Assembly (NCBI RefSeq): GCF_902713615.1
Contig: NC_052158.1
Span: 18,906,546 to 18,970,545, forward strand
From: Scyliorhinus canicula
Lineage: Eukaryota
Reading direction: 5' to 3'
Length of the DNA: 64,000 nucleotides
The notes beneath the pieces were generated by a model. The model was not told the origin of the DNA and searched no databases. It worked only from the letters and a program-made list of their open reading frames with translations. Made by a program: the position numbers and the translations under genes. This document shows positions 5,421-64,000 of the stretch, one piece after another; positions within the stretch are counted from its first letter, which is position 1, and each line of letters opens with the position of its first letter.

Positions 5421-5759
5421 AGAGTTTTGGCATATCAATTGTCAAAGTTACAAGCTCAAAGTATCTGAAGAGCAGTATCCTGGTAAATATGGTGTGGGTA
5501 ATTGATTTCCTTCCTTGCCAGGCAGAGATGTAGCCTGACTACAGATTTTGAATGTGCACTGGATTCTGCAATACCTGTCAGAGAGATAGTTCACATTAGT
5601 TTACTGGAGGAATGTTTGCGTCAACTAACTTTGAGAACTTTATTAAAGCATTTGAAGTAATCACTGAGGCTTGTGAGGATAACCATTACATCAGCGAGAC
5701 TCTTAAACAACACAGCTTAAAACACATTTCAAAACTCGAATGCGCTTTAGCTCTGAATC

Positions 5760-6290
5760 TGCAGGGAAGACGGTCATGCTAACGTTAGTGTCCTTGAAGG
5801 AGTCAACAGCCCCAGTATCAAGGCCATGATCATCCAAAACCAACTCCACTGGGCCACCCATATGCTTAGGATGTCAGAGTGCCGATTGACAAAGCAAAGC
5901 TTCTTTACCCAGCTCCAGGAAGGATCCCGGACAACAGGAGGACAAAGGAAGCTCTTCAAAGTCACCTTTAAGGCTTACCTCAAGAAATGGAACATAGACG
6001 TCAATGCCTGGGAGACCTTTGCTCAGAAGAGACTTACTTGGAGGAACCTCCTGATTGAAGGGTCACAATTCTTCGAGACACCCAACGGCAAAAGGAGGCC
6101 TGGAGAAGGAGCCTTAGAAAGGAATACCCGTGGCCTAGAGTTCAAGGACTTATGCAACATTTGGAAACTCCTGCCAAGTGAAGATGCAGCTCTAGGATCG
6201 GCTGATCAGCCACGCTGGGACCCACAGTAACACGTGACCAGTAACACGGAGTATCTTAGGTAGACAATCATACCCGTTAGCAAGTGATCA
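5760..6290 (+). mobile_element. RTE-clade LINE 3' fragment
   Basis: ORF 5826-6230 QLHWATHMLRM...GGQRKLFKVTFKAYLK...W..LL resembles the RTE C-terminus. Confidence 0.75.
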
Positions 6291-7112
6291 CAGCATTCTA
6301 TCCTTTATAGTTCCTTTAATGGAACTAACATCCTCATGACAAACCAAAGTTTCAAAAAAAATCTTTATTTCACTTTGTGACTTCAAACTCACTTCATACT
6401 GTAAAATATCCTTTATACACCCCTTACCCTCAAACAAAAAACCAACCCCATCCACCCCACGCCTTTCTCGTGGCAACCCCTCACTTCACTCCAGTAAACT
6501 AGACCGCCCAGCTAGCATGGTGGCCCCGCCCAAGGCTTCCAACCATCCTTCCTCCCACCACTTCCACTTCCCCCACCCCCCGACCATCCCAACGGCTTAC
6601 CTCTAAAGAGTAAAAAAAGGCACACTCATCATTGCTCCCCCCTTTTGCCGTTGGGCAAGGGCCTGCCCTGGAATACCACACACCAAACACTTAAAAAAAG
6701 CACAGAAACCTCCTCCAAAGTTCAATGTCTTCACACTCCTCCAAGTCCATTGTCCCATATAAATTCCATTGCCTCCTCTGGCTGGTTGAAAAAGGAAATA
6801 AAGGAATCAACAGGAAGGACCCTTACACATGAATATCCGTGGACCGGGGGCAAAGTCGTGAATGAGCACTGGGGCAGCCAATCAGAGGTAGCCCTGGCGG
6901 CATGAATCTTGTGGAGACGTTTTTTTAAAATGCCTAACAATACAGCATGAAAACCCACCCTTACTGCCAACCGGCTAAATACTGCTTTTCCTGACCGCGA
7001 TTGAACTCAACAAATACAGGGAGAATTCTGCTCTTTGTCCGAAACAGGAAGTTCTGCCTTTATGACTTCTGTCTTCCTGGTATTAATTTTGTGAACATTT
7101 CTGCTGTTCTAG

Positions 7113-12422: not shown

Positions 12423-13019
12423 TGTCGTAGTCAATATTTTCCCCGCGTCTGTACTGTGATAGAGAAATTCAAACAGCATTCATTAGGTAAGCAAAACTGA
12501 ACTTTATTAACGAATTAGAACTGCTAGCAGTAATGGCTGAGACTTGAAGTCGGAAGGCAGTCAAGTACAAACTGCTGAGTCCGTCCCAAGTTTGCGATAT
12601 TACAGAAGAATAAGATGATTTTTATACATTATAGGATCAAGATAACATGAATACAGCTTGGTCAGGAATTTGATCGAAAGTAAAACATAAGTAATAATCA
12701 TTGCAATGGCGTCACCTTGCTGACGTTTAGGGGACTGGGGTCTCATATCATTATCTTGTCTTTGTTTTAAGAAATGGACAAATTTGTTTACGTACAGGAA
12801 GAGACCGTTTTTTAGCTTGTTATGTATTGAGACTGCTCTAGTCTCATGATGAACACGCCTTATCCTAGAGTTTCAGAGTCACCCAGTTCTCAGGTCAAGT
12901 TGACCTTGGCCTGCTAGTATTTGTGCCTTAGGTTATGCGAAGTCAGTTTAAATTTAATTGTACCAAGAAACTTGACTGGTTTTCCCATCATGCCATTATT
13001 TGCTTCACACAATACCACA
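12423..13019 (-). repeat. 3' LTR of the class I ERV
   Basis: Direct repeat of 20608-21205 with about 18 differences counted by eye. Preceded on the minus strand by the PPT AAAAGGGGGGAG (13020-13031). Confidence 0.95.
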
Positions 13020-13059
13020 CTCCCCCCTTTTGTCATATCATGACAACCAGCTAAATAGG

Positions 13060-20607: not shown

Positions 20608-21205
20608 TGTCGTAGTCAATATTTTCCCCGTGTCTGTCTGTGATAGAGAAATTCAAACAGCATTCATTAGGTAAGCAAAACTGAACTTTATTAACGAATT
20701 AGAACTGCTAGCAGTAATGGCTGAGACTTGAAGTCGGAAGGCAGTCAAGTACAAACTGCTGAGTCCGTCCCAAGTTTGCGATATTACAGAAGAATAAGAC
20801 GATGTTTATACATTATAGGATCAAGATAACATGAATACAGCTTGGTCAGGAATTTGATCGAAAGTAAAACATAAGTCATAATCATTACAATGGCGTCACC
20901 TTGCTGACCTTTAGGGGACTGGGGTCTCATATCATTATCTTGTCTTTGTTTTAAGAAATGGGCAAATTTGTTTACGTACAGGAAGAGACAGTTTTTTTTA
21001 GCTTGGTATGTATTGAGACTGCTCTAGTCTCATGACGAACACGTCTTATCCTAGAGTTTTAGAGTCACCCAGTTCTCGGGTCAAGTTGACCTTGGCCTGC
21101 TAGTATTTGTGCCTTAGGTTATGCGAAGTCAGTTTAAATTTAATTGTACCAAGAAACTTGACTGGTTTTCCCAACATGCCATTATTTGCTTCACACAATA
21201 CAACA
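20608..21205 (-). repeat. 5' LTR of the class I ERV
   Basis: Direct repeat of 12423-13019. Confidence 0.95.
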
Positions 21206-21349
21206 CTGGAGCTGTGTAGCGATTGTGCTATCCACAATGCTGCCATTGGATTGGCCATGCTAAATTGATGGGGTTACGGGAATAGGTTGGGGGATTGGAC
21301 CTAGGTAGGGTTCTCTTTCAGAGGGTCAGTACAGTTGATAGGCCGAATT

Positions 21350-44414: not shown

Positions 44415-45750
44415 TTACATACAATTATGTGCACGTGCACGGAAAAATTGCAACCCATCTTCAGCATTGTAGTTGAGTACAAGTTTTTGGAGTCTTTTCT
44501 TGAGGCGAATGTATTTTTTGTTTTCCCTTGCCACATCAGCCCCTGATAATGCCTGTTCTATTATAATTTCAGTGCTTGACTGTTCAATCCTAAGCTTCTG
44601 AATTAATTTGGATAAATTAGGGTGATGGACATTGACTCTTCTACTGAAGGCGTGGTGCCACCCTTCTAGCGAGTTGTTAGTTTTTGGGAGATCACTGAGA
44701 ACTCTGGAGTGACATGACCATAAATAAATGTCAAATATTGGGCGTCGACATCTACCGCGTTGCATGATTCCTACCCATGTACACTCGAAATAAGACAGGA
44801 ACTGCTCCAAAATTTCATCTGTTTGTGCATCTAAAGAATGAAGAAATTGTTCAAACAAAACAGCAACATCATCAGGTGGTACGAAAGCTATCGCTTGCAG
44901 CTGTTTTATAATGAAAGCATTTTCTCGGTCGCTGTACCACGTTTGTAAGCCTGTAGTCTGTATCTTGCGCCATAAACACTGGCCAAAGTGAAAAAAACAA
45001 CCATACACAGAAACGTGAGGTAAATGTTTTTTGATGCTGTTTATAGCTGCTTTCTCAAAGTCCACTGTAATAGACGTCACATTTAAATTCCTTCCCTCTG
45101 TAATGAATTTAAATATTAAATCATAATTCTGTTCACTTTTACTGTTTGTTACACAATAAAGTAGTGGCACTGTTTTACGTTCAGAAATTAGTACATGGAT
45201 CGTGTATAGCTGCTTACCCAAAGGCGCAGAGTCAAAAGTCCCGTCACAAAACCATTCGGTTTTCTTGGACAAAATTTCCAAATTTTTCAACGTACCAAAT
45301 ATAGAAACATCTTCATTTGCATAGAGTAAAAAATCATCACCTGTTGGAGTCTTATATAGTTCTTCCTCACTTATTACTGGTCTTTTTCGTCGCACCGTAT
45401 GCTTGAGAGAGTCCTTTTTTGGTAATGCTCCGACAATGGTCAAGGGGATATCGGACGTTAGATTATCAATGATAGAGCTTGGAAATTCAGATTGGAAGTT
45501 CAGATTGTGCAGCAAGATGTTTTATTTCTTCTTTAACTTTTGAAGCTTGATTCTCAATAGGTGTTGGTGGATGCGAGTGTTCAGAAGACGTTCTGCTAAT
45601 TTCCTCATCGATCATTGTCATTCTTGCGTTGCAGACTTTACGATTTGCGCATCTCCAATAAGTCTTTGATTCCCTGGTTTTGTCAATAATATAGGCGTAT
45701 CCCTCGAACAGAAGCTTTTTGCTTCCTTGCTCCGTTTTGACAAACTCCAT
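44415..45750 (-). pseudogene. FLYWCH plus MULE DDE transposase with one frameshift
   Basis: FEGYAY...YWRC...CNAR...HSH, then WFCDGTF, VDFEKAA, CFFHFGQ and TNNSLEGWH. The frame break coincides with a 13-bp tandem duplication near 45481-45510. Confidence 0.9.
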
Positions 45751-45785
45751 GAATGATACTGAAGGGCTTTGAATAAGGTCTTGAC

Positions 45786-46030
45786 ATTCATTTACAATTG
45801 TTGAAGTACGTAATTTGGTATAACTATTTTAAGCGGGTTCCCTGTCGACTAATTGTCTTGAAGTCTTGAAATTCATTTACAATTGTTGAAGTACGTAATT
45901 TAGTATAACTATTTTCAGCGGGTTCCCTGTCGACTAATTGTCTTGAAGTCTTGAAATTCATTTACAATTGTTGAAGTACGTAATTTAGTATAACTATTTT
46001 AAGTGCAACTATTCCCTGTCGACTAATTGT
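45786..46030. repeat. 85-bp tandem repeat, ~3 copies, inside the MULE upstream of the ORF
   Basis: ATTCATTTACAATTGTTGAAG recurs at 45786, 45871 and 45956. Confidence 0.9.
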
Positions 46031-46824
46031 CCTATCGGCCAATTGTCCTGTCTGTGAATTGTCCTGTCTGTGAATTGTCTGTCGGCCAACTGTCCGTCGG
46101 CTAATTGTCTTTCGGCGAATTGTCCTACTACCCCATAGGTTAGGTGGGTTACTGGGATAGGGCAGGGGAGTGGGCCTAGGTAGGATGCTCTTTCAGAGGG
46201 TTGGCGCAGACCCGATGGGCCAAATAGCCTCCTTCTGCACTGTAGGGATTCTATTCATAAAGCCAAGATCCTGATTGACTTTACAACCACTATCTCAACC
46301 TACCCTGCCATCTTCTTTTGCTTTGTGCGTATACGCCCCAGATCACTCTGTGCATACTTTAAAATTTTAACCATTTGTTTGTATTGCCCTTCCTCATTCC
46401 ATCCACCAAAATATACTTTACCCTTCTCTGTGTTAAAATTCATCTACCTGTCCTTTTTACCAGCCTGTTTATGTCCTCTGATATCTATCAGTATCCTCAC
46501 AGGTCAATATTCAATATACTTTCTGGTTTGTGCCATCTTCAAATTTTGAAACTGCCCAGCACATCTAGGTTGAGGTTATTAATATATATGAAGAACCACA
46601 GTAGTTCAATGAATGAAAGGCTTCACTCCTGCGCCTTGCAAATTTAACATTCTTTAACCCAAGAGTTCTGAGAATTGACAAGAGCTTAATTTGAAACCAG
46701 ATTTGAATCTATAGGTTGAGCAATGCACCCATGCAAGAGACTCACATTCAGCTGGCTGCAAATGACCAGGCCAATGTTCATTGTGGGTTCATGTGGTAAG
46801 GTTACTGGCCAGGCCACATCCTCT

Positions 46825-48949: not shown

Positions 48950-49366
48950 GGCAGCGGCGTGCAGAGGGGGGGGGGCCGATGGTGCGCTGGCCCCGGGCAG
49001 CCATTGGATGGGGGCAGCACCGCGGTCGGGTGGAGCGCGCCTGCGCACCGCGGTCGGGTGGAGCGCGCCTGCGCACCGCGGTCGGGTGGAGCGCGCCTGC
49101 GCACCGCGGTCGGGTGGAGCGCGCCTGCGCACCGCGGTCGGGTGGAGCGCGCCTGCGCACCGCGGTCGGGTGGAGCGCGCCTGCGCACCGCGGTCGGGTG
49201 GAGCGCGCTTGCGCACCGCGGTCGGGTGGAGCGCGCCTGCGCACCGCGGTCGGGTGGAGCGCGCCTGCGCACCGCGGTCGGGTGGAGCTTTGGACTCGGA
49301 GGCTGGAGAGGGAGCACAAAGGGCGCGAATTCTCCAGAATCGACGGCAATGCCACCATGGGTGAGT
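48950..49366 (+). promoter_or_regulatory. Candidate CpG-island promoter and first exon ending GCCACC-ATG-G/GTGAGT
   Basis: Reverse CCAAT box (ATTGG 49003-49007), repeated GCGCCTGCGCA and GGGTGGAG motifs, a perfect Kozak ATG at 49357 and a consensus donor at 49361. Confidence 0.65.
49017..49288. repeat. GC-rich 28-bp minisatellite, ~9.7 copies
   Basis: Unit GCACCGCGGTCGGGTGGAGCGCGCCTGC, nearly perfect. Confidence 0.97.
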
Positions 49367-52735: not shown

Positions 52736-53746
52736 TGTTGCACGTTTTACTTGAGTGTATTACGCGTTTATTGGAGTGTATTAACACGCCTCCGTTTAAA
52801 GGCCGTGTGCTTAACACTGCTACAGCTCTGTGTGTGTATTTTCAGCTCGGAGTCGCCAGGTGCCGTATCTAGACACCTCACAAGTATTTCAAGGTCAGGT
52901 TCAAAGTAATAAAACTATACACCGATTAGTAAGTTCAAACGATCAATATTTATTATACAAATATAATAAATACGCATGCATACGCTAAAGACTAATACTT
53001 ATTACTACTATTAAACGACTAAATACTCATCTAAGTAGGAACCAGCAAGGTCAGGGGACAAGGCCTTTGTTCCTTTCTGGGCTGCACCTTCTGTTCACTA
53101 ATAGTCGAATACTGTATAAGTAATGCCGGGTTCACGTAGCGAGCATCGTTTTGGCACTTACTGAACGATGGCTGGTGCTCAACGGCTGGTGATGGGAGAC
53201 AGGATCAACGGCTGGAGTCGGAGTCAGGATACAACAGCAGATCTGGGCCAGAGTCAAAGCAGCAGTCCAAGCCGGAGCACAAAAACAGACAGAACCATGT
53301 GCGGGATCTATCTTTATAGGGCCTTCAATGCCGTGCCTTTTCGGGGCGGGCCTTTACCTGCCATGTATCGATTGGGTTATTTCCCAATCGATGTCTTACA
53401 AATCCCCCAATCTGAGGGTCTCTTCTCGATGGGTGGGGCAGTCTCTAGGGTCTTTTGTGATGGATACTTCTGGTGCCGTTTCGTCTGGGCGTCCACTCAA
53501 AGTATCCATTCAAACCCAAATGTTGCTATTGTGTGTGCCCAGATCTGGATTGCCTCATTACTATGCAAAGCGTTTTGCTATTTACACCTTTGGTTGAGAT
53601 CTTCCACCTGGCCATAAACTAGTTTCGTTACGTGCAGAATGCTAATTAGCCTTTGCAGACTGCTTGTCCTGGCTAAAACTGTTTTCTCCCTACAGTCTTA
53701 GCAGTTCTCCATTTTGTTAGCCCAGTGTCCATCTTAAGTGGCTACA
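52736..53746 (-). repeat. 3' LTR, 1011 bp
   Basis: TGTAGCC...GCAACA ends, TATAAA 53318-53313, donor GTAAGT 53161-53156 and AATAAA 52954-52949. Confidence 0.85.
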
Positions 53747-54106
53747 TTCCCTCCTTGTGATCCTCACAATAAAAAATTGTGAAGGATCACCTAAGCACGT
53801 TGCTTCGAGTGCTTCTGGGTGCCTTCTTTGTGTTCCCTGACCTCGGCAAGTTCCTGGGCGTCTATTCTGTCCTTGACTATGGGAAGAAAATTTTTTACCT
53901 GACATCTCTACTTGGCGCTATGTCAAAGGGGACATGCATTACCAAAACCGGGAACCTCTACCTATCACAACTATCCTTATCTTACCTTAAACATTTTATT
54001 ACAGTCTAAACCTTATTCATTCATACCACATTACATAACATTTCCTGACTCGGCAGTCGAGTCCAGGACAATATAATACATGGGTATCTTTTATTCACAT
54101 AGTGCT

Positions 54107-54451
54107 TTATTCATCAAGGGGCAAGGGGGATTGATGAAACCGAAAAATAGGGGATCGAACTCCATAGACGGTTGAGGGGCAGGAACGGGAGGCTCTCCTT
54201 TTCCATTTCCTCAACCTGAGGGTCTGTACGATTATGCAGAGGATTGCGATCACTAGCATTGATTCAATCACATATGACATGGAGTACCATGTCATAAATT
54301 TTGTGCACCAGGTCTGAACTTCACTGATCAGAGCTGAGCACGGGGGAGTTGGTGTGAGGGAAACATTGACGGCGGGGGTTGTGGGGGAAACGTGCCTTTC
54401 TTCCACACATACAAATACAACATTTAACAGTAATAGGTGGGCTTCCATCAT
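54107..54451 (-). CDS. 114-aa predicted single-pass membrane protein in the env position
   Basis: accATG start, hydrophobic N-terminus, NVS sequon, TM YVIESMLVIAILCIIVQTL and basic RLRKWKRR. Upstream TACTAAC branch point and AG acceptor. Confidence 0.65.
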   Translation of the reverse strand: MMEAHLLLLNVVFVCVEERHVSPTTPAVNVSLTPTPPCSALISEVQTWCTKFMTWYSMSYVIESMLVIAILCIIVQTLRLRKWKRRASRSCPSTVYGVRSPIFRFHQSPLPLDE

Positions 54452-55410
54452 GGTCTTCTCTTCGTTCTCTTTCTCTTCCTCCTGTATGGCCGATCCTTGC
54501 TGTGAACCCTCTTTCGTCCTTTGAAAGCTATGGGATCAAGCACAGTATCTGTCAATACACAGTTTAATATCCGTACTTGTTAGTATATCTGTCCTCTAAT
54601 TCCAATTGACCCATTAAAATGACTGGCCAAGTCACACCCTGTGACTCCCCTCTTTTTTTTTTCAAAAGCGAATTTAATGAACAGAATACACCTAACAACT
54701 TTCCTCCTGCGAGCCGTCTCGCAGGCTTTGCTAATTTACCATCCGAATGTTCCTGGATGTAAATAGCATGTGGGATGGCGGCCTAAGGGCTGCCTAACGA
54801 AAAATGAAAACAAATTTGAAAGAAAAGGTCGAATGGGTTGCGTATGGGCCGCTACGGGTACGATTTGAATGGGATCCCCGGGTAAGGCGTGCTGTGCCAT
54901 ACCCGAGCTTGGCTGACCAAAGTGGGTTCTCAGACAGGGTGGGTCCTCAGTGCCGTTTGTCCACTGCCTGAGTAACCTGGATTAAACGGGCAAGAATGTG
55001 TTTACCGTGGGTTTGCAGCCTCTATTCACCGAATAGAGGGGCACCTAAAAACAAGGGAGGAGCCAAGATGCTCCAACATCTGAAAACAGTGAACTGAAGT
55101 TCTCAGAGGTATCTGCAGATAAACTAGTGTGCGTGTAAGGCGGTCACAAGCCTTACAGCTGAAAAGATTTCCAATCAAACCATTGGGTTGGGAACCAAAG
55201 TTCTCAAAGGTATCGGCGGACAAACTAAAGTGCGTGCGAGGTGGTCACAATATTTTCAGCTGAAAAGAAGGTGTCCAGCCTCCAACTGAACCAATAACAT
55301 TGAAACAAACAAACATAAACTCACAAACAAAACATACGTGCAGGTTCCATCAGAAAGGACATCGCTTCCCTCAAGCGGTTGCTATTTTACATCATCTGGA
55401 CACCTCACTT

Positions 55411-58400
55411 TTACTCTGCCTCTGTGAACAGGGTCACAAAGGGGTTGCCGTATCGGGATTCAGACACCGTGTCGTCCAGCTCTCCCGGATCCCACACCCT
55501 TGTGTGGATCAGGCATGAAATTTTTGAATTATGTGACCGGGGGTCACTTTCGTCGTTGCGGACAAGTCTGTACGAATTGCCCCTGTGCCAGAGTGTTGGG
55601 TCTAAAAGTGAATGGGTATTGTCGGGGTAGTCGGGGTCGGGTGGTGGGTCTGGGTTTTTAATATAAGTGACTTCCATGGGGTCACTGGAGTCGGGGTCAT
55701 AGTCGCTGCAGTGTGGGCTGTAGTGTGGTGTGCTGTGGCTGTCCTCAGAGTCAGTGTCTGTATCGCTGTCTCTGCTGCGGCAGCTTGTGGGCGTTTCGGG
55801 GCGTGGTCTGTCGTGGTCAGTGGGCGGAGTCGTGGGCGAGTCCGATGAAGAACTGGTCTGTGAGGGGGATGGTGGAAACGTGTCTCTAGTGGGTGGGGCG
55901 AGGTGTTCTGCTGCGTCTAGCAGGACATGGTGTGCATGGTTGGACTGTGTTCCATATGCCTTTAGCTGGTTAATATGGAACCACGCGGTCTTTCCATTGG
56001 GATATTTTACCTTGTAAACTGAGGGGCTAATTTTATCCAAAATTGAATATGGGCCGGAATATTTTGGTGCCAAAAAACTGCTGGGGTTGTATACAGATAG
56101 CATTACCTGTTGCCCAACCTGGAATCCTGTGGGGTGGACGGTCTTATTAAAGCATGCTGTGCTTCGTCTACGCCGTTTCCCTAGTTGAACTGCGGCTGCG
56201 ATCTGTGCAGACCTCACAGTCTCAACCAGGTCTTTAACAGCCTTTTCATGTGTGAGGGCCGTCACTTCGGGGCTAGTCATGTCCAGTCCTAAAAGGAATT
56301 CTGTACCTTTCATAGGGTGTCCGGTCATGAGTGTGTGTGGTGTGTATCCTGTGGAAGTTGAAACTGTATTTCTGATAAACATGAGTGCAAATGGGAGCAC
56401 TGAATCCCATGTTGAGTTGTTCTCTTGAACCATTTTTCTAAGTGTGGATTTTAGGGTCCGATTCATGCGCTCTACAATCCCGCTGGACTGTGGGTGATAC
56501 GCAATATGAAAGTTTTGTTTGATGCCGAATATAGTCAGGACGTTCTTCATGACACGTCCTGTGAAGTGAGATCCCTGGTCCGAATCTATACTTCTGGGTA
56601 AACCCCATCTCGTGAAGATGTGGTGGGTCAGGATCTTTGCAGCTGTCTTAGCTGTATTTGTTCTAGAGGGGAATGCCTCTACCCATTTGGTAAAGGTATC
56701 GATTACCACCAGAACGTATTTATGGCCATTCCTACAAGGGGGCAATGGTCCTATAAAGTCGATCTGGAGGTTTGTCCAGGGGCCATTAACTGGTCGAGTA
56801 TACCGAAGCTGTGCCTTTTTAGAATACCTCTCCGGGTTATTCTGGGCGCAAATAAGGCAATTCTCGATGTAGTGAGTTACATCTGTCCTTAGGTTAGGCC
56901 ACCAACAGAGCTGCCTGAGGTGCCTCGTGGTCGTGTCGATTCCTTGATGTCCATGCCCGTCATGGAACAAAGCAATCATTTGATTCCTGTCCTGCTGCGG
57001 GACCACATAAAGCTGGTCCTTGATGATCACACCCTCATGTGTGGTCAGTGTGTGTCTGAACTTGTCAAACTGAGGCACAAAGTTGCCTTTAAAAATCTCC
57101 CTGAGATCCTCATCCTGCTTCTGTGCTTCAGCTAAATCCTTGATATCGGTCTGTGAGACTTGAACTGCGCTCACAGGGGCGCTAGCTGGTGTGCTAGCTG
57201 GGGGTGTCCACAAGTGTCCTCGCCTGGAACCTGCCTTAGCCAGTGCGTCGGCTTTTACATTCCCAGGGGGGGATGACCTATGGTGGCTTCTAACTTTTAT
57301 AATGCCGAAGGTTCTGTCCTTCGCTTTATCTAAAATGTGGCGGAGTAAAGGGGCTGATGGAAGGGGTTTCCCGTCTGCGGAGACAAAACCTTGTGTCCTC
57401 CACAGGGGTAGAAAATCTGTTAGACTGTTGCAGACATATAGACTGTCCGAATATATGTCCGCTGGGCTTGGGAAAGAATCGGGGTGGTCCACTATATAAG
57501 CTATGGCCGCGAGCTCTGCTGCCTGCGCGCCTAAGTCACCTGGCAATTTTAACGCTATTTCTTCGAGAGCGCAACCCTGCGCGTCCTCGACATAGATGCC
57601 GCATCCCGTGATACGCTCACCTTCTAAAACCGTGGATGAACCGTCCACGTATATCCGTAGTGGTCCACATGTGTCTGTGTGTTGGGGGCTTTGTCTTGGG
57701 TTCCCTATCTTCCTGGGGGGTGTCTTCGCTATGAAGGGTCCTGTGTTGTGTAGGGGTGCTACAATTTCACATTCATGGGGCTGTCCTGGATATTGGAGGT
57801 TGTCGGCTAAAAATGTGTGTGTGCGGGTCCGTTTAACCGTAATGTCCCGTCCTTGTAAGAGTAGTGTCCACCTAGCTGCCCTAATCTGGCTAACTGAACC
57901 GCCCTTCAGTCGACCGTCTAGGAGTAACTGTGTGGGGGTGTGCTCGGTCAAAATAGTGATGGGGTTGAGTCCGGTAATGTACGAGAAGTACTGAACTGCC
58001 CAGAAAACTGCTAGGAGGTGCCTCTCACAGGCTGAAAATCCCTGTTCTACTGGGTCTAAGAGTCGGGAGGCATAAGCCACTGGTCTTAGCTGCTCGTGCC
58101 GTTCCTGAAGTAACACGGCCGAGAGGGTCAGATCTGTGCCCGCTACCTCTATTGCATAGGGGGAAAGGTGGTCTGGGACTTGTAGCGCGGGTGCTGCGCT
58201 AAGGGCTCTCTTTAACTCCTCCACAGCCTCTGTATGCTGCGGAAGCCATTCCCAGGGGGCTCCTTTCTTAAGGAGGTCTGAGAGTGGGGCTGCCTTTGTC
58301 GCGAATCCGTCGATGTGGTTCCGACAATAACCAACCAGTCCTAAGAACGACCGGAGGGCTGAAACATTCTGGGGAAGGGGCAATTTGACAATCGAATCAA

Positions 58401-59638
58401 TTCTTTTGAATTCGATCTCGCGTTTGCCGTGTGTATGACTGTACCCAAATACATCACTTTATTTTCCAAAATCTGGGCCTTTCTTGGGTTAACTTTACAT
58501 CCAATTGAGGTTAAAAGTTCCAGGAGCTCGGCCAGAAGCGTAATGTGCTCTGCCTTTGTGTCTGTCTGCAGTAGTAGGTCGTCTACATACTGTACCAGAC
58601 ATTCGGGGCGGGAAAATTTTTCTAAACCATTCGCCAGCTGTCTGTGGAAAATGGAGGGGGAATTGTGGAATCCTTGTGGAAGGCATGTCCACGTATACTG
58701 TTGTGCTTTGAAGGTGAAGGCAAATTTGTACTGGCACGCCTTTGCCAATGGGATTGACCAGAAGCCGTTGCTAATGTCCAATACCGTGAAAAATTTGGAG
58801 TTGAGTCCCTTTTGAGCATGGTCTCGGGACTTGTTGCTACCGTGGGGGCTACTGCTGGGGTTACTTTGTTGAGTTCCCGATAATCGATGGTCAGACGCAA
58901 TGATCCGTCGGGCTTTCTCACTGGCCAAATAGGGGCATTATTGGTCGAGGCTACTGTTCTAAGCACACCTTGCTCCAATAAGCTACCTATCACTTTCTCT
59001 ATTTCTCCCTCTGCTTCTAGGGGAAATCTGTATTGTTTCTGTGGTCGGGGGTCAGGTCCGGTAACGTGAATTTGTCCAGTCATTCTGCCGCAGTCGTGCC
59101 GGTGACTGGCAAATGCTGTCCTGTGTTTGTGTAATACTGCCTTTACTTGTCTGTCCGTGTTTAGTGCAGTCAGGTCAAATGAATAGTCTCCTACTGCGCT
59201 AATCCTATTAGCGTACTCTCCTACTGTGAGAGTAGCGGGTGCTCTGTCCGATCTTGCCATTCGCCAGACACACTGGTTCACTGGGTCGAACGACAGGCTA
59301 TGGGCATTCATAAAATCTATCCCCAGGATGTGTTCTGCTGTCCGGGGAAGATTTACTAGAACGACGGGGTGTTTGGTGGAAATGTTCCCTAGCTGGATTG
59401 CTACGGGTGCTGTAATGTGTCCCTGCTGCGAGTGTCCTGTGAAACCGCTAAGTGTGATGGTGGAGGTGGTCGGCCACGTGTCTGTCTGTGCCGTGGTGGT
59501 GGAATTAATCGTGGTGCGGGACCCTCCTGTGTCCCAAAGTAACTCTATGGGCTTCCCTCTAACCTTAGCTGTGACTACCGGTCTTCCGGATTGATCCCAA
59601 AGAGTGTCACAGACCCAAGTGGGGGAGCCCGAACACCG
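55411..59638 (-). CDS. pol: Pol (PR, RT, tether, RNase H, integrase, C-terminal tail), open except for two 1-nt frameshifts near 58812 and 58432
   Basis: LLWDTGGS; PQKQY; LTIDYRELNK; LDISNGFW; LPQGFHNSP; YVDD; RPVAYAS; IYVDGSS...AELAA...YSDS; HHCC; IDFIG/DSDQG/ERMN; YSGPY. Confidence 0.92.
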
Positions 59639-60083
59639 TCAGTCCGTCCCGTCCACATTGGTCTGTCCTGAATGTATCCCTATACTATGGATTGGTTTGG
59701 CTTTATTCCTATTCAGAGTGCCTGTCTGCTGGCCTCTCTGTGATCTCTGGGGTGCATTACATTCCTTAGCCCAATGTCCTAACTGGCCACAGTTGTAGCA
59801 TTCCTGCGACTTCTGTGGAGGGCTGTTCTTTCCTTCATTTACCCACGCGGGGTTTTGGTGCGCTCTCACTGCCTGAATGTCCGCTGTAGCCTGAGCTTCT
59901 TCTGGGGATTTCACTTTGCCTCTGCCTTGAACTGATTGCTCCCAAGCGCGGGACAATCTTTTCAGGACCCACTTCTCATTATGGGCCTCTTCTGAGGGGT
60001 CATAGCTGTTGCAAGCACTCTGTTCTGCATCTGTGGCATGGGAAATTATGGTGCGCGTCCATTTAACCATATTTTCATGGTTC
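59639..60083 (-). CDS. gag: Gag C-terminal part with one CCHC zinc knuckle
   Basis: CYNCGQLGHWAKEC; ends with TGA in frame with pol; cut at ~60083 by the CR1 tail. Confidence 0.88.
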
Positions 60084-63000
60084 ATAGAACATAGAACATA
60101 GAACGATACAGCGCAGTACAGGCCCTTCGGCCATCGATGTTGCACCGACATGGAAAAAAAAACTAAAGGCCATCTAACCTACACTATGCCCTTATCATCC
60201 ATATGCTTATCCAATAAAATTTTAAATGCCCTCAATGTTGGCGAGTTCACTACTGTTGCAGGTAGGGCATTCCACGGCCTCACCACTCTTTGCGTAAAAA
60301 ACCCACCTCTGACCTCTGTCCTATATCTATTACCCCTCAATTTAAGGCTATGTCCCCTCGTGCTAGCCACCTCCATCCGCGAGAGAAGGCTCTCGCTGTC
60401 CACCCTATCTAACCCTCTGATCATTTTGTATGCCTCTATTAAGTCACCTCTTAACCTTCTTCTCTCTAACGAAAACAACCTCAAGTCCATCAGCCTTTCC
60501 TCATAAGATTTTCCCTCCATACCAGGCAACATCCTGGTAAATCTCCTCTGCACCCGTTCCAAAGCTTCCACGTCCTTCCGGAACTCAATCCCTCTACCAA
60601 TAAAGGCCAACACACCATAGGCCTTCTTCACAACCCTATCAACCTGGGTGGCAACTTTCAGGGATCTATGTACATGGACACCGAGATCCCTCTGCTCATC
60701 CACACTACCAAGAATTTTACCATTAGCCAAATATTCCGCATTCCTGTTATTCTTTCCAAAGTGAATCACCTCACACTTCTCCACATTAAACTCCATTTGC
60801 CACCTCTCAGCCCAGCTCTGCAGCTTATCTATGTCCCTCTGTAACCTGCAACATCCTTCCGCACTGTCTACAACTCCACCGACTTTAGTGTCGTCTGCAA
60901 ATTTACTCACCCATCCTTCTGCGCCCTCCTCGAGGTCATTTATAAAAATGACAAACACCAACGGCCCCAGAACAGATCCTTGTGGTACGCCACTCGTAAC
61001 TGAACTCCATTCTGAACATTTCCCATCAACTACCACTCTCTGTCTTCTTTCAACTAGCCAATTTCTGATCCACATCTCTAAATCACCCTCAATCCCCAGC
61101 CTCCGTATTTTCTGCAATAGCCGACCATGGGGAACCTTATCAAACTCTTTACTGAAATCCATATACACCACATCAACTGCTCTACCCTCGTCTACCTGTT
61201 CAGTCACCTTCTTAAAGAACTCGATAAGGTTTGTGAGGCATGACCTACCCTTCACAAAACCATGCTGACTATCCCTAATCATATTATTCCTATCTAGATG
61301 ATTATAAATCGTATCTTTTATAATCCTCTCCAAGACCTTACCCACCACAGACGTTAGGCTCACCGGCCTATAGTTACCGGGGTTATCTCTACTCCCCTTC
61401 TTGAACAAAGGGACCACATTTGCTATCCTCCAGTCCTCTGGCACTATTCCTGTAGCCAATGATGACCTAAAAATCAAAGCCAAAGGCTCAGCAATCTCTT
61501 CCCTGGCTTCCCAGAGAATCCTAGGATAAATCCCATCCGGCCCCGGGGACTTATCTATTTTCACCTTGTCCAGAATTGCCAACACTTCTTCCCTACGCAC
61601 CTCAATGCCATCTATTCTAATAGCCTGGGTCTCAGCATTCTCCTCCACAATATTATCTTTTTCTTGAGTGAATACTGACGAAAAGTATTCATTTAGTATC
61701 TCGCTTATCTCCTCAGCCTCCACACACAACTTCCCACCACTGTCCTTGACTGGCCCTACTCTTACCCTAGTCATTCTTTTATTCCTGACATACCTATAGA
61801 AAGCTTTTGGGTTTTCCTTGATCCTACCTGCCAAAGACTTCTCATGTCCCCTCCTTGCTCGTCTCAGCTCTCTCTTTAGATCCTTCCTGGCTTCCTTGTA
61901 ACTATTAAGCGCCCCAACTGAAACTTCACGCCTCATCTTCACATAGGCCTCCTTCTTCCTCTTAACAAGAGATTCCACATCTTTGGTAAACCACGGTTCC
62001 CTCGCTCAACCCCTTCCTCCCTGCCTGACTGGTACGTACTTATCAAGAACATGCAATAGCTGTTCCTTGAACAAGCTCCACATATCCAGTGTGCCCAACC
62101 CTTGCAGCCTACTTCTCCAACCAACACATCCTAAAGTCATGTCTAATGGCATCATAATTGCCCTTCCCCCAGCTATAACTCTTGCCCTGCGGGGTATACT
62201 TATCCCTTTCCATCACTAACGTAAAGGTCACCGAATTGTGGTCACTGTTTCCAAAGTGCTCACCTATCTCCAGATCTAACACCTGGCCTGGTTCATTACC
62301 CAAAACCAAATCCAATGTGGCCTCGCCTCTTGTTGGCCTGTCAACATATTGTGTCAGGAAACCCTCCTGCACACATTGTACAAAGAACGACCCATCTAAT
62401 GTACTCGAACTATATCTTTTCCAGTCAATATTTGGAAAGTTAAAGTCTCCCATCACAACTACCCTGTTACTTTCGCTCTTTTCCAGAATCATCTTCGCCA
62501 TCCTTTCCTCTACATCCCTAGAACTATTAGGTGGCCTATAGAAAACTCCCAACAGGGTGACCTCTCCTTTCCTGTTTCTAACCTCAGCCCATACTACCTC
62601 AGAAGAAGTGTCCCCATCTAGCATCCTTTCCGCCACCGTAATACTGTCCTTGACTAGCAGCGCCACACCTCCCCTCTTTTGCCCCCTTCTCTGACCTTAC
62701 TAAAACACCTAAACCCCGGAACCTGCAACAACCATTCCTGTCCCTGCTCTATCCATGTCTCTGAAATGGCCACAACGTCGAAGTCCCAGGTACCCACCCA
62801 TGCTGCCAGTTCCCCTACCTTATTTCGTATACTCCTGGCATTGAAGTAGACACACTTCAAACCACCTACCTGAACACTGGCACCCTCCTGCGAAGTCAAA
62901 TCTGTGCTCCTGACCTCTATACTCTCAATCTCCCGTACCCCAAAACTACAATCCAGGTTCCCATGCCCCTGCTGAATTAGTTTAAACCCCCCCAAAGAGC

Positions 63001-64000
63001 ACTAACAAATCTCCCCCCCAGGATATTGGTGCCCCTCAGGTTCAGATGTAGACCATCCTGTCTATAGAGGTCCCACCTTCCCCAGAAAGAGCCCCAGTTA
63101 TCCAGAAATCTGAATCCCTCCCGCCTGCACCATCCCTGTAGCCACGTGTTTAATTGCTCTCTCTCCCTATTCCTCATCTCACTATCACGTGGCACGGGCA
63201 ACAACCCAGAGATAACAACTCTGTTTGTTCTCGCTCTGAGCTTCCATCCTAGCTCCCTAAAGGCCTGCCTGACATCCTTGTCCCCTTTCCTACCTATGTC
63301 GTTAGTGCCAATGTGGACTACGACTTGGGGCTGCTCCCCCTCCCCCTTAAGGACCCGGAAAACACGATCCGAGACATCACTTCCCCTTGCACCTGGGAGG
63401 CAACATACCAAACGTGAGTCTCTCTCGCTCCCACAAAATCTCCTATCTGTGCCCCTGACTATTGAGTCCCCAATTACTAATGTTCTACTCCTTTGCCCCC
63501 TTCCCTTCTGAGCAACAGGGACAGACTCCGTGCCAGAGGCCCGTACCGCATAGCTTACCCCTGGTAAGTCGTCCCCCTCACAAGTATCCAAAACGGTATA
63601 CTTGTTACTCAGGGGAACGACCGCAGGGGGTCCCTGCACTGACTGCTTCTTCCCAGTCCCTCTTACAGTTACCCATCTATCTCCAGTCTTTGGTGTAACT
63701 ACTTCCCTGAAGCTCCTATCTATGACCCCCTCTGCCTCCCGAATGATCCGAAGTTCATCCAGCTCAAGCTCCAGGTCCCTAACACGGTTTTTGAGGAGCT
63801 GGAGTTGGGTGCACTTCCCACGGATGAAATCAGCAGGGACATTGACGGCGTCCCTCACCTCAAACATTCTGCAGGAGGAGCATTGTACTGCCTTCCCTGA
63901 CATCACCTCTAGATTTTAAAAAAAACAAGAAAAAGAAAAAGAAATGAAGAGCTTACCTGATGTTACCTCAAACCCTGCTCCCGCTGAAAGTTAAGCAAAT
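60083..64000 (-). mobile_element. Young CR1 LINE copy B, nearly full length, inserted in gag
   Basis: Open 309-aa ORF1 (62977-63906); ORF2 APE-RT in three frames (FADDTK); (TTCTATG)n tail. Near-identical by eye to copy A. Confidence 0.97.

Follow-up and report, generated by a model that had tools for sequence, protein, structure and literature searches.

Purifying selection maintains a small membrane-protein gene where env would lie in a catshark endogenous retrovirus family that lacks env

Endogenous retroviruses (ERVs) that lack an envelope gene (env) are usually seen as retrotransposons that stay within the cell and have lost whatever functions they had at membranes. The subject of this work is an env-less ERV of the catshark Scyliorhinus canicula, found on the minus strand of a 64,000-nucleotide stretch of DNA (assembly GCF_902713615.1, contig NC_052158.1, positions 18,906,546 to 18,970,545; hereafter the window). 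Between the pol gene of this element and its 3' long terminal repeat (LTR) lies an open reading frame (ORF) for a small membrane protein of 114 amino acids plus stop (54107..54451, minus strand), which the ORF listing, sibling copies, the ratio of nonsynonymous to synonymous divergence (dN/dS) and resampling together identify as a real gene under purifying selection in five subfamilies. Precedents exist in the sORF2 genes of insects, in the nectin3 gene of CrocERV31 and in the small accessory ORFs of snakehead retrovirus (SnRV). In the literature covered, with subscription journals and Repbase outside its scope, we found no description of the gene itself, or of any small transmembrane (TM) gene that takes the place of env in an ERV of vertebrates.

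Among the described systems, the sORF2 protein of the Drosophila MDG1 element sits in protrusions that carry capsids into the oocyte, and some lepidopteran sORF2 genes lie after pol (10.1101/2025.03.14.642691). The catshark arrangement resembles the sORF2/FAST type in its env-less retroelement context, its short single-pass protein, an amphipathic ectodomain motif and a juxtamembrane polybasic patch, but it differs in that the element is of retrovirus type rather than a member of the Metaviridae, in that its ORF is probably spliced whereas MDG1 transcripts are described as unspliced, and in showing no homology. In CrocERV31 (ERV4), a different membrane-protein ORF, also evolving under purifying selection, has likewise taken the place of env (PMC4299795); in that case, however, the ORF is a captured nectin3, a host gene with three Ig domains, whereas for the 114-residue catshark ORF no host source was found.

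Based on its sequence, we file the catshark element as an env-less, SnRV-like ERV. The SnRV primer is tRNA-Arg, and the catshark element also has a tRNA-Arg primer site, as well as a small 3' ORF for which a subgenomic RNA is predicted here. In SnRV, gag and pro-pol share a reading frame that a stop codon interrupts, and Gag has one knuckle (PMC2717909, PMC1224870); the catshark element shares this organization, with one CCHC knuckle and a tether plus RNase H, and differs from SnRV in being without env, in having one 3' gene only, in its stop context (TGA-CGG versus UAG-GGC) and in being endogenous at high copy number. When the protease, reverse transcriptase (RT) and RNase H of a sibling copy were scored against solved structures, MLV-type proteins gave 221 bits, foamy 214 and Ty3 136, and among the RT rows of the PMC7947760 supplement it is the SnRV row that shares the longest runs, as judged by eye and not from a tree. 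Dual RNase H and an aquatic vertebrate host are also features of Lokiretroviruses, whereas the catshark RT lacks the motifs of the Loki rows and there is no F-like env in the slot; Lokiretroviruses are reported to be absent from the cartilaginous fish screened in that study (PMC7947760). Lokiretrovirus, foamy-like and Ty3/Gypsy assignments were rejected on the basis of RT motifs and scores. A catshark ERV that has been named ERV-Spuma.0-Sca is reported to group with foamy-like fish ERVs (PMC10699275).

First-look candidates for the family numbered 2675 by DNA search and 5572-6943 by protein searches, figures that are not copy numbers, and 106 loci were examined: 30 of subfamily A, picked by DNA likeness to the window copy, 40 of subfamily B, picked by pol alone, and 36 of subfamilies C, D and E, for which protein similarity was the criterion. 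Identity is ~80% over the 3' region for B, and 66-79% for C-E. An intact ORF is present in 28 of 30 A loci and in 39 of 40 B loci, the latter chosen without regard to it, and 20 of the 36 C-E loci passed a strict full-length filter; a sixth subfamily, represented by three loci, and a second catshark species also carry the ORF. Rates were calculated pairwise between natural copies, with broken copies excluded. Between A and B (28x39 pairs), dN/dS is 0.20, 0.24 or 0.27 at transition weights of 1, 2.5 or 4, with a binomial p of 3e-7 to 2e-5 on mean counts, while the other five reading frames give 0.5-5.6 in two test pairs; comparison values for the same subfamilies are 0.07-0.09 in pol and 0.30 in its acidic tail. 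Constraint between A and B is tightest over the membrane-proximal helix, the TM and the basic patch, and looser in the leader and tail, with a proportion of nonsynonymous differences (pN) of 0.046 against a synonymous proportion (pS) of 0.44 in the core, and a pN of 0.20 in the tail. All ten between-subfamily dN/dS values (from eight copies each of A and B, seven each of C and E, and six of D) fall between 0.24 and 0.47, with p from 4e-7 to 6e-3, and the membrane core gives 0.07-0.27, at distances where dS reaches 1.2 and protein identity is as low as 49%. Within young subfamilies, dN/dS is 0.33-0.45 and mostly not significant. Frameshifting indels per kb per copy number 0.08-0.10 in the ORF and 1.8-10.6 in its flanks, and are thus ~17- to 130-fold rarer in the ORF, on counts that are not independent and that include homopolymer slips.

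Such conservation could also reflect a chance ORF or an overlapping RNA element, a possibility that would draw on the presence of a conserved non-coding block nearby and on the ease with which ORF length alone (at least 114 amino acids) is reached, as this occurred in 106 of 2000 resamples. An ORF of that length with both a TM and a basic patch, however, arose in none of 2000 resampled intervals, and synonymous sites of the ORF are at least as diverged as those of pol (dS ~0.5 versus 0.36-0.44) while the amino acids are kept, with third-position changes making up 36 of 66 differences in one test pair. We consider this explanation extremely improbable, and rejected it on dN/dS, the rarity of frameshifts and resampling. 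That a family with thousands of candidate copies, recent copying and no env keeps this gene is, on the other hand, virtually certain. The preliminary description of this DNA had proposed a purposely expressed gene in the env slot, to be checked for neutral disruption in sibling copies; the retention of a small membrane-protein gene was borne out across the five subfamilies, while its splicing, discussed below, is supported only indirectly.

Protein features were read from an alignment of 23 natural copies, in which the protein is 114-118 amino acids long with one TM after the leader. The 114-codon ORF, its hydrophobic leader, the NVS sequon (amino acid 29), the hydrophobicity peak (amino acids 57-78) and the basic stretch RLRKWKRR are all found in the window copy where they had first been placed; two ectodomain cysteines (Cys38 and Cys49) are likewise present there, but only Cys49 is invariant among the copies. 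The predicted signal peptide (amino acids 1-18; 54398..54451) was judged by the (-3,-1) rule applied by hand: a hydrophobic leader is seen in 23/23 copies, and a cleavage site in 21/23, though not in the window copy. It is followed by a stalk rich in Ser, Thr and Pro (amino acids 19-47; 54311..54397), where this composition (44-63%) and the N-glycosylation sequon at the invariant Asn29 are kept in all 23 copies. Next come an aromatic, amphipathic membrane-proximal helix (amino acids 48-59; 54275..54310), with Trp48, Cys49, Phe52 and Trp55 invariant and an 11-residue hydrophobic moment of 0.59 in both copies for which it was calculated, and a predicted TM helix (amino acids 60-78; 54218..54274), with Glu63 and Gln76 invariant and ~140 degrees apart on an ideal helix. 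The polybasic stretch (amino acids 79-86; 54194..54217) belongs to a segment in which Lys and Arg account for 7-8 of the 15 residues after the TM in 23/23 copies, and the cytoplasmic tail (54110..54193) holds a conserved Tyr/Ser-Pro/aromatic motif (amino acids 96-111). Invariant positions in fact concentrate at Asn29, Trp48-Tyr60, Glu63, Gln76, the basic patch and the tail motif. AlphaFold2 returned a leader helix and one long helix (residues 39-90), with a pLDDT of 86-93 over the TM and a pTM of 0.30-0.34. The protein is hence predicted to be a small type I cell-surface membrane glycoprotein with ~40 residues outside the cell.

As first noted for this element, no env-sized frame exists between pol and the LTR of the window copy on either strand, and the longest stop-free stretch there on the element strand is that of the ORF itself, at 142 codons. 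Neither a longer form of the ORF nor an env was found among the 106 loci of the five subfamilies, so that the sibling copies do not bear out the possibility, raised in advance, of a leftover from a longer env. The features of a surface-transmembrane (SU-TM) precursor, namely several hundred residues, a cleavage site, a fusion peptide and a heptad/cysteine loop, are absent from the protein, and similarity to 14 env pieces from env-bearing ERVs of the same genome peaked at 3.0 bits. These env-bearing ERVs (L082-L091) have gamma-type env frames of up to ~560 codons; the genome yields 78 matches to PF00429, and the integrases of the env-bearing ERVs seen are only ~28-40% identical to that of the element.

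A profile search of 1.84 billion representatives returned four matches and a search of longer proteins nine, with three in common. All ten proteins are catshark gene models, the nine longer ones all end in the ORF, and every relative of the small protein that carries a species name belongs to Scyliorhinus; no homologue outside catsharks was found by these searches. A single-sequence search yielded no homologue among eight candidates of 62-200 amino acids, the best protein atlas score was 0.87 (lead level, 0.9), Pfam gave nothing above its cut-off, the profile search of solved structures no match at E<=10, and Foldseek against a viral library no match at E<=0.001. TMEM156 was considered as a host source, as it was matched by 16 of 23 members (best E 9e-4, under the cut-off), and was dismissed when five of the six matches were fetched and all five proved to be copies of the element. 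A possible likeness to the TM segments of immune adaptors found no support either, with no match among solved chains and no adaptor Pfam family.

For its expression, the ORF would depend on a splice donor in the LTR and an acceptor upstream of its start codon. A GTAAGT motif lies in the 3' LTR copy of the R region (53156..53161), the copy that would serve being in the 5' LTR, outside the window. Its placement in R, as in the preliminary description, holds given a TATA at 53318 and sibling RNA that ends at ~52930, where poly(A) loose ends and read ends map near the AATAAA at 52954. Of the 106 loci, 91 have GTAAGT at the corresponding site of the LTR (A 24/30, B 40/40, and 8/12, 9/12 and 10/12 in C, D and E), some of the misses being truncated LTRs; LTRs differ by ~30% already between A and B, and the motif is kept while its flanks diverge.

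In the case of the acceptor, two AGs lie 18-21 nt apart in 103 of 106 loci (21 nt in the window copy). The upstream one, AG1 (54549..54550, exon start 54548), is conserved and was the acceptor first proposed, together with a perfect TACTAAC branch point. That motif is indeed present (54579..54585), but it is weak as evidence: its first T is a private variant, the full motif recurs in 2/30 close siblings and 0/40 B copies, and it arises in 91 of 2000 resamples. Its CTAAC core is mostly kept, in 85 of the 103 loci with both AGs, though in 0/9 of subfamily D. The downstream AG2 (54528..54529, exon start 54527), with a candidate branch site TTGAC at 54555-54551, is favoured by gene models. In P0046, an exon outside the element is joined by GT-AG to AG2, with the junction read from the genome; in P0047, with upstream exons ~100 kb and 185 kb away, entry is at AG2 even though the frame is open through AG1; P0048 and P0051-P0055 enter at AG2 by protein homology, and P0049 and P0050 are compatible with this. 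An ATG lies between the two AGs in 29 of 33 C-E loci and in 0 of 70 A and B loci, so that use of AG2 skips it in C-E, and AG1 remains possible in A and B. AG2 is therefore the more likely acceptor and 54548 probably the wrong one of the two, although with either the ORF would start at the first AUG, as proposed, since no ATG occurs between 54548 and 54451. The purine-rich untranslated leader (54452..54527) is non-coding, because its length varies between and within subfamilies; the possibility that an Arg-rich leader frame, with a stop overlapping the ORF ATG, forms a Rev-like exon was set aside, as leader length is not conserved in frame. In a stranded run, RNA of element sense covers the ORF (16 versus 1). 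Overall, these signals make it likely that the ORF is expressed from a spliced RNA using the LTR donor. Right after the ORF and before the LTR are three AATAAA motifs (54111, 54095 and 54000, minus strand), one of which is kept in subfamily B; reads run past them, and their use for polyadenylation is not evident. Models P0049-P0055 are host-gene isoforms from the second catshark species with the ORF as an alternative last exon, which adds the TM and tail; the host genes with this last exon include HEPACAM2-like, SUGCT, CFAP36, B3GAT1-like, KIAA1958 and a galectin-domain gene.

We propose that the LTR transcript would be spliced from the R donor to AG2, or possibly to AG1, with removal of gag-pol, so that the ORF ATG becomes the first AUG. 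The signal peptide would then be cleaved and the stalk glycosylated, giving a surface protein with its aromatic helix at the membrane and its basic patch and tail inside; cleavage, glycosylation and arrival at the surface are very probable from the predicted features. Once there, the protein could cluster at cell contacts, where its tail would recruit capsids or actin and the membrane would be destabilised, allowing particles to enter adjacent (germ) cells, in the manner of sORF2 in the Drosophila MDG1 elements. This last step, by analogy, we put forward only tentatively, and the same caution applies to the combined reading, of a gene under selection for a type I glycoprotein, made from spliced RNA, that acts as an Env-independent factor for cell-to-cell transfer of capsids, which is possible and is the reading we prefer. 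A membrane step in the life cycle is in any case probable, because a cell-confined retrotransposon gains little from a surface glycoprotein. The bolder scenario of a vertebrate retrovirus lineage that dropped Env and reached thousands of copies by means of a new, signal-peptide-bearing mini-fusogen, with direct passage from soma to germline, is rather unlikely.

Several observations weigh against the transfer-factor reading. No LTR-donor junction reads, and no junction at AG1 or AG2, were found in two raw RNA runs, of which ~1% and ~32% were read, among the loose ends listed and with the window copy and a B copy as targets (subfamilies A and B only); the search for spliced reads suggested at the outset thus came back negative. 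Among indexed runs none with RNA was listed, and contig runs X1, X2, X3 and X6 attest to presence only. Unspliced reads cross the acceptor at depths of ~16-32 (X24) and ~130-500 (X23), and much of the RNA in the ORF region may be passive transcription of old copies. The junctions at hand come from database gene models of other subfamilies with host exons, none of them through the LTR donor, and AG2 in subfamily B is a weaker AAG. The searches turned up no fusogen related to the protein in sequence or fold, and the anatomy of the ORF also fits viroporins and accessory proteins. With regard to the reovirus FAST proteins, whose topology the preliminary description had likened to that of the ORF, a length of 114-118 amino acids falls within the ~60-200 of FAST and sORF2 proteins, and the single TM, polybasic patch and amphipathic ectodomain are as described for them. 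FAST proteins are not known to have a cleaved signal peptide. The sORF2 screen asked for at least 3 Lys or Arg in the 15 residues after the TM (10.1101/2025.03.14.642691), of which there are 7-8 here, and for an amphipathic ectodomain patch, also found. Myristoylation and topology, however, do not fit: Gly2 is found in 0/23 copies, so that the N-terminal myristoylation motif (MGxxxS/T) is absent, although this is also the case in two Drosophila sORF2 proteins (10.1101/2025.03.14.642691); the single TM cysteine leaves no palmitoylated membrane-proximal dicysteine; and FAST proteins are type III (PMC12945298, from a reference title), whereas the catshark protein, whose signal peptide appears to be cleaved, has a predicted glycosylated stalk and ~40 rather than ~30 residues in its ectodomain. 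FAST membership was for these reasons rejected.

Among other roles, the protein could be an accessory factor that modulates the host, comparable to Vpu or to decoys of the immune-adaptor families, with Glu63 and Gln76 binding a host membrane protein in the bilayer and the tail routing it, so as to shield the expressing cells or particles, while spread would be intracellular or rely on the Env of another virus. The invariant polar TM residues and the conserved tail motif would suit such a function, as would a signal peptide and glycan site like those of ordinary type I proteins; env-bearing ERVs do share the genome, and in SnRV several small accessory ORFs are expressed through subgenomic RNAs (PMC12193657). 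Against this, no solved chain or immune-adaptor family was matched, the env-bearing elements seen are distant by their integrases, and constraint between A and B is weakest in the tail; we thus regard the accessory role as unlikely, albeit far from negligible. An improbable alternative is that of a class IA viroporin-like protein, the oligomers of which would form a small pore, with a role in particle release or an effect on secretory compartments. The protein does have the anatomy of this class, as it shares with the BEFV alpha1 type an aromatic N-terminal cluster, a central TM and a basic C-terminal region (PMC4334499), rhabdovirus viroporin-like genes also sit behind the glycoprotein gene (PMC4334499), and the invariant Cys could link subunits. 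The signal peptide, glycosylated stalk and TM Glu of the catshark protein, and its retroviral context, are nevertheless outside that description, the angle between Glu63 and Gln76 leaves no single polar face, and no homology emerged from the viral fold library, solved structures or Pfam.

A further explanation concerns the origin of the gene, and is compatible with a transfer factor: a shrunken env, in which a large internal deletion would have spared only the signal peptide, the membrane-proximal helix, the TM and the tail, and which would have been kept as an anchor or Gag-targeting stub. The position, predicted splicing and order of parts fit such a deletion, and SnRV has an env (PMC12193657). 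A longer form, however, is found neither among the examined loci nor among longer database proteins, and the comparison with env, made with the 14 pieces of the catshark genome and with no Env of the SnRV clade, stayed at or below 3.0 bits; we give this origin a low probability.

Turning to the remainder of the element, its 3' LTR (TG...CA; 52736..53746, minus strand, as are all element features) has its 5' partner just past the window end (L031), an alignment of the pair showing 13 substitutions and 2 gaps over its 1012 columns, and a 4-bp target duplication, CACC, flanks the element. The LTR carries an AATAAA (52949..52954), with sibling RNA ending ~20 nt downstream, and is preceded by a polypurine tract (53747..53756), identified from sequence. 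Pro-pol (55411..59638) encodes protease, RT (frameshifted in the window copy), tether, RNase H and an integrase with a long acidic tail. This extension of ~190 amino acids (55960-55411) is of low complexity, ends in a conserved segment and is missing from the two nearest database Pol proteins. The 3' part of gag (59639..60084), with one CCHC knuckle (PF00098, one stretch), terminates at a TGA that is in frame with pro, as it does in the four siblings read (4/4). In the window copy, gag also contains an in-frame stop. SnRV-clade Gag features a coiled-coil region, and a charged, helical-looking stretch is visible by inspection in the Gag of the element. At the gag end (59641-59636), this TGA is followed by CGG; the TGA-CGG context is listed for VEEV and coltivirus readthrough, while SnRV uses UAG-GGC (PMC13517186). 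The window element sits inside one long interspersed nuclear element (LINE), and a second, foreign to it, is inserted in its gag (60085..64000). From its RT, endonuclease and tail, we take this second LINE to be of CR1 type.

The 18 nt of the primer site are all complementary to the end of host tRNA-Arg(TCT) plus CCA in one of four B copies and variant in the other three; the window element also has a variant of this match (L031:2828-2851, 5 nt from the LTR end), around which copies vary, and another primer-site-like sequence lies inside U5 near 52860. In the leader before gag, TACTAAC is directly followed by AG in A and B copies (L031 ~2680-2690; L145-L148). This env-less family was copying recently, because stop-free pro-pol matches are abundant (78 distinct places) and the LTR pairs of four B copies are near-identical, with 0-3 substitutions in ~950 nt. 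Where loci extend far enough, the layout is integrase tail, ~0.9 kb of non-coding DNA, the ORF, a short 3' region and the LTR. Among C-E loci, the pol end was recognised in 7 of 20, with 868-986 nt from the pol stop to the ATG and intervening ATG frames of at most 67 codons, and most of the others align colinearly.

Within the non-coding interval, a short tandem duplication (55250-55050), whose copy number varies among siblings, is the most variable internal region. Next to it, a conserved non-coding block (54690..55050) keeps 77-90% identity between subfamilies with a synonymous divergence of 0.5-1.2, and is possibly an export, packaging or splicing element. An AG preceded by a long polypyrimidine tract (54795-54794), a third candidate acceptor, is found there in 16/16 aligned copies and is followed by GT in most subfamilies. 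A conserved RNA structure in the block was not established, as hairpins are predicted (z -1.9) with only 2 of 60 pairs changed on both sides, and Rfam gave no match. Elsewhere in the window, two direct repeats (12454-13021 and 20638-21207; 97-98% identical, ~8.2 kb apart) are probably another young LTR element. A FLYWCH zinc-finger ORF of 87 amino acids (45487-45750, minus strand; E 4e-16), adjoined by three 85-nt tandem repeats (45778-46032), is probably part of a DNA-transposon fragment, and a GC-rich 28-nt tandem array (48961-49344) has frames open on both strands.

An env-less, high-copy lineage has thus kept a surface glycoprotein gene through a synonymous divergence greater than 1 and across two species, and its retention under selection therefore suggests an unrecognised membrane step in the life cycle of these elements. 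Several host genes, moreover, have database models in which the acceptor of the element appears to serve an alternative last exon. If the protein is an accessory factor, it would point to host restriction in sharks, whereas a mini-fusogen would be structurally new among small fusogens and would stand, within the Retroviridae, as the equivalent of insect sORF2. Should the protein prove to be a transfer factor, an idea that the 114-amino-acid size makes directly testable, Env-independent infection of the germline, shown so far in flies, would extend to vertebrate retroviruses.

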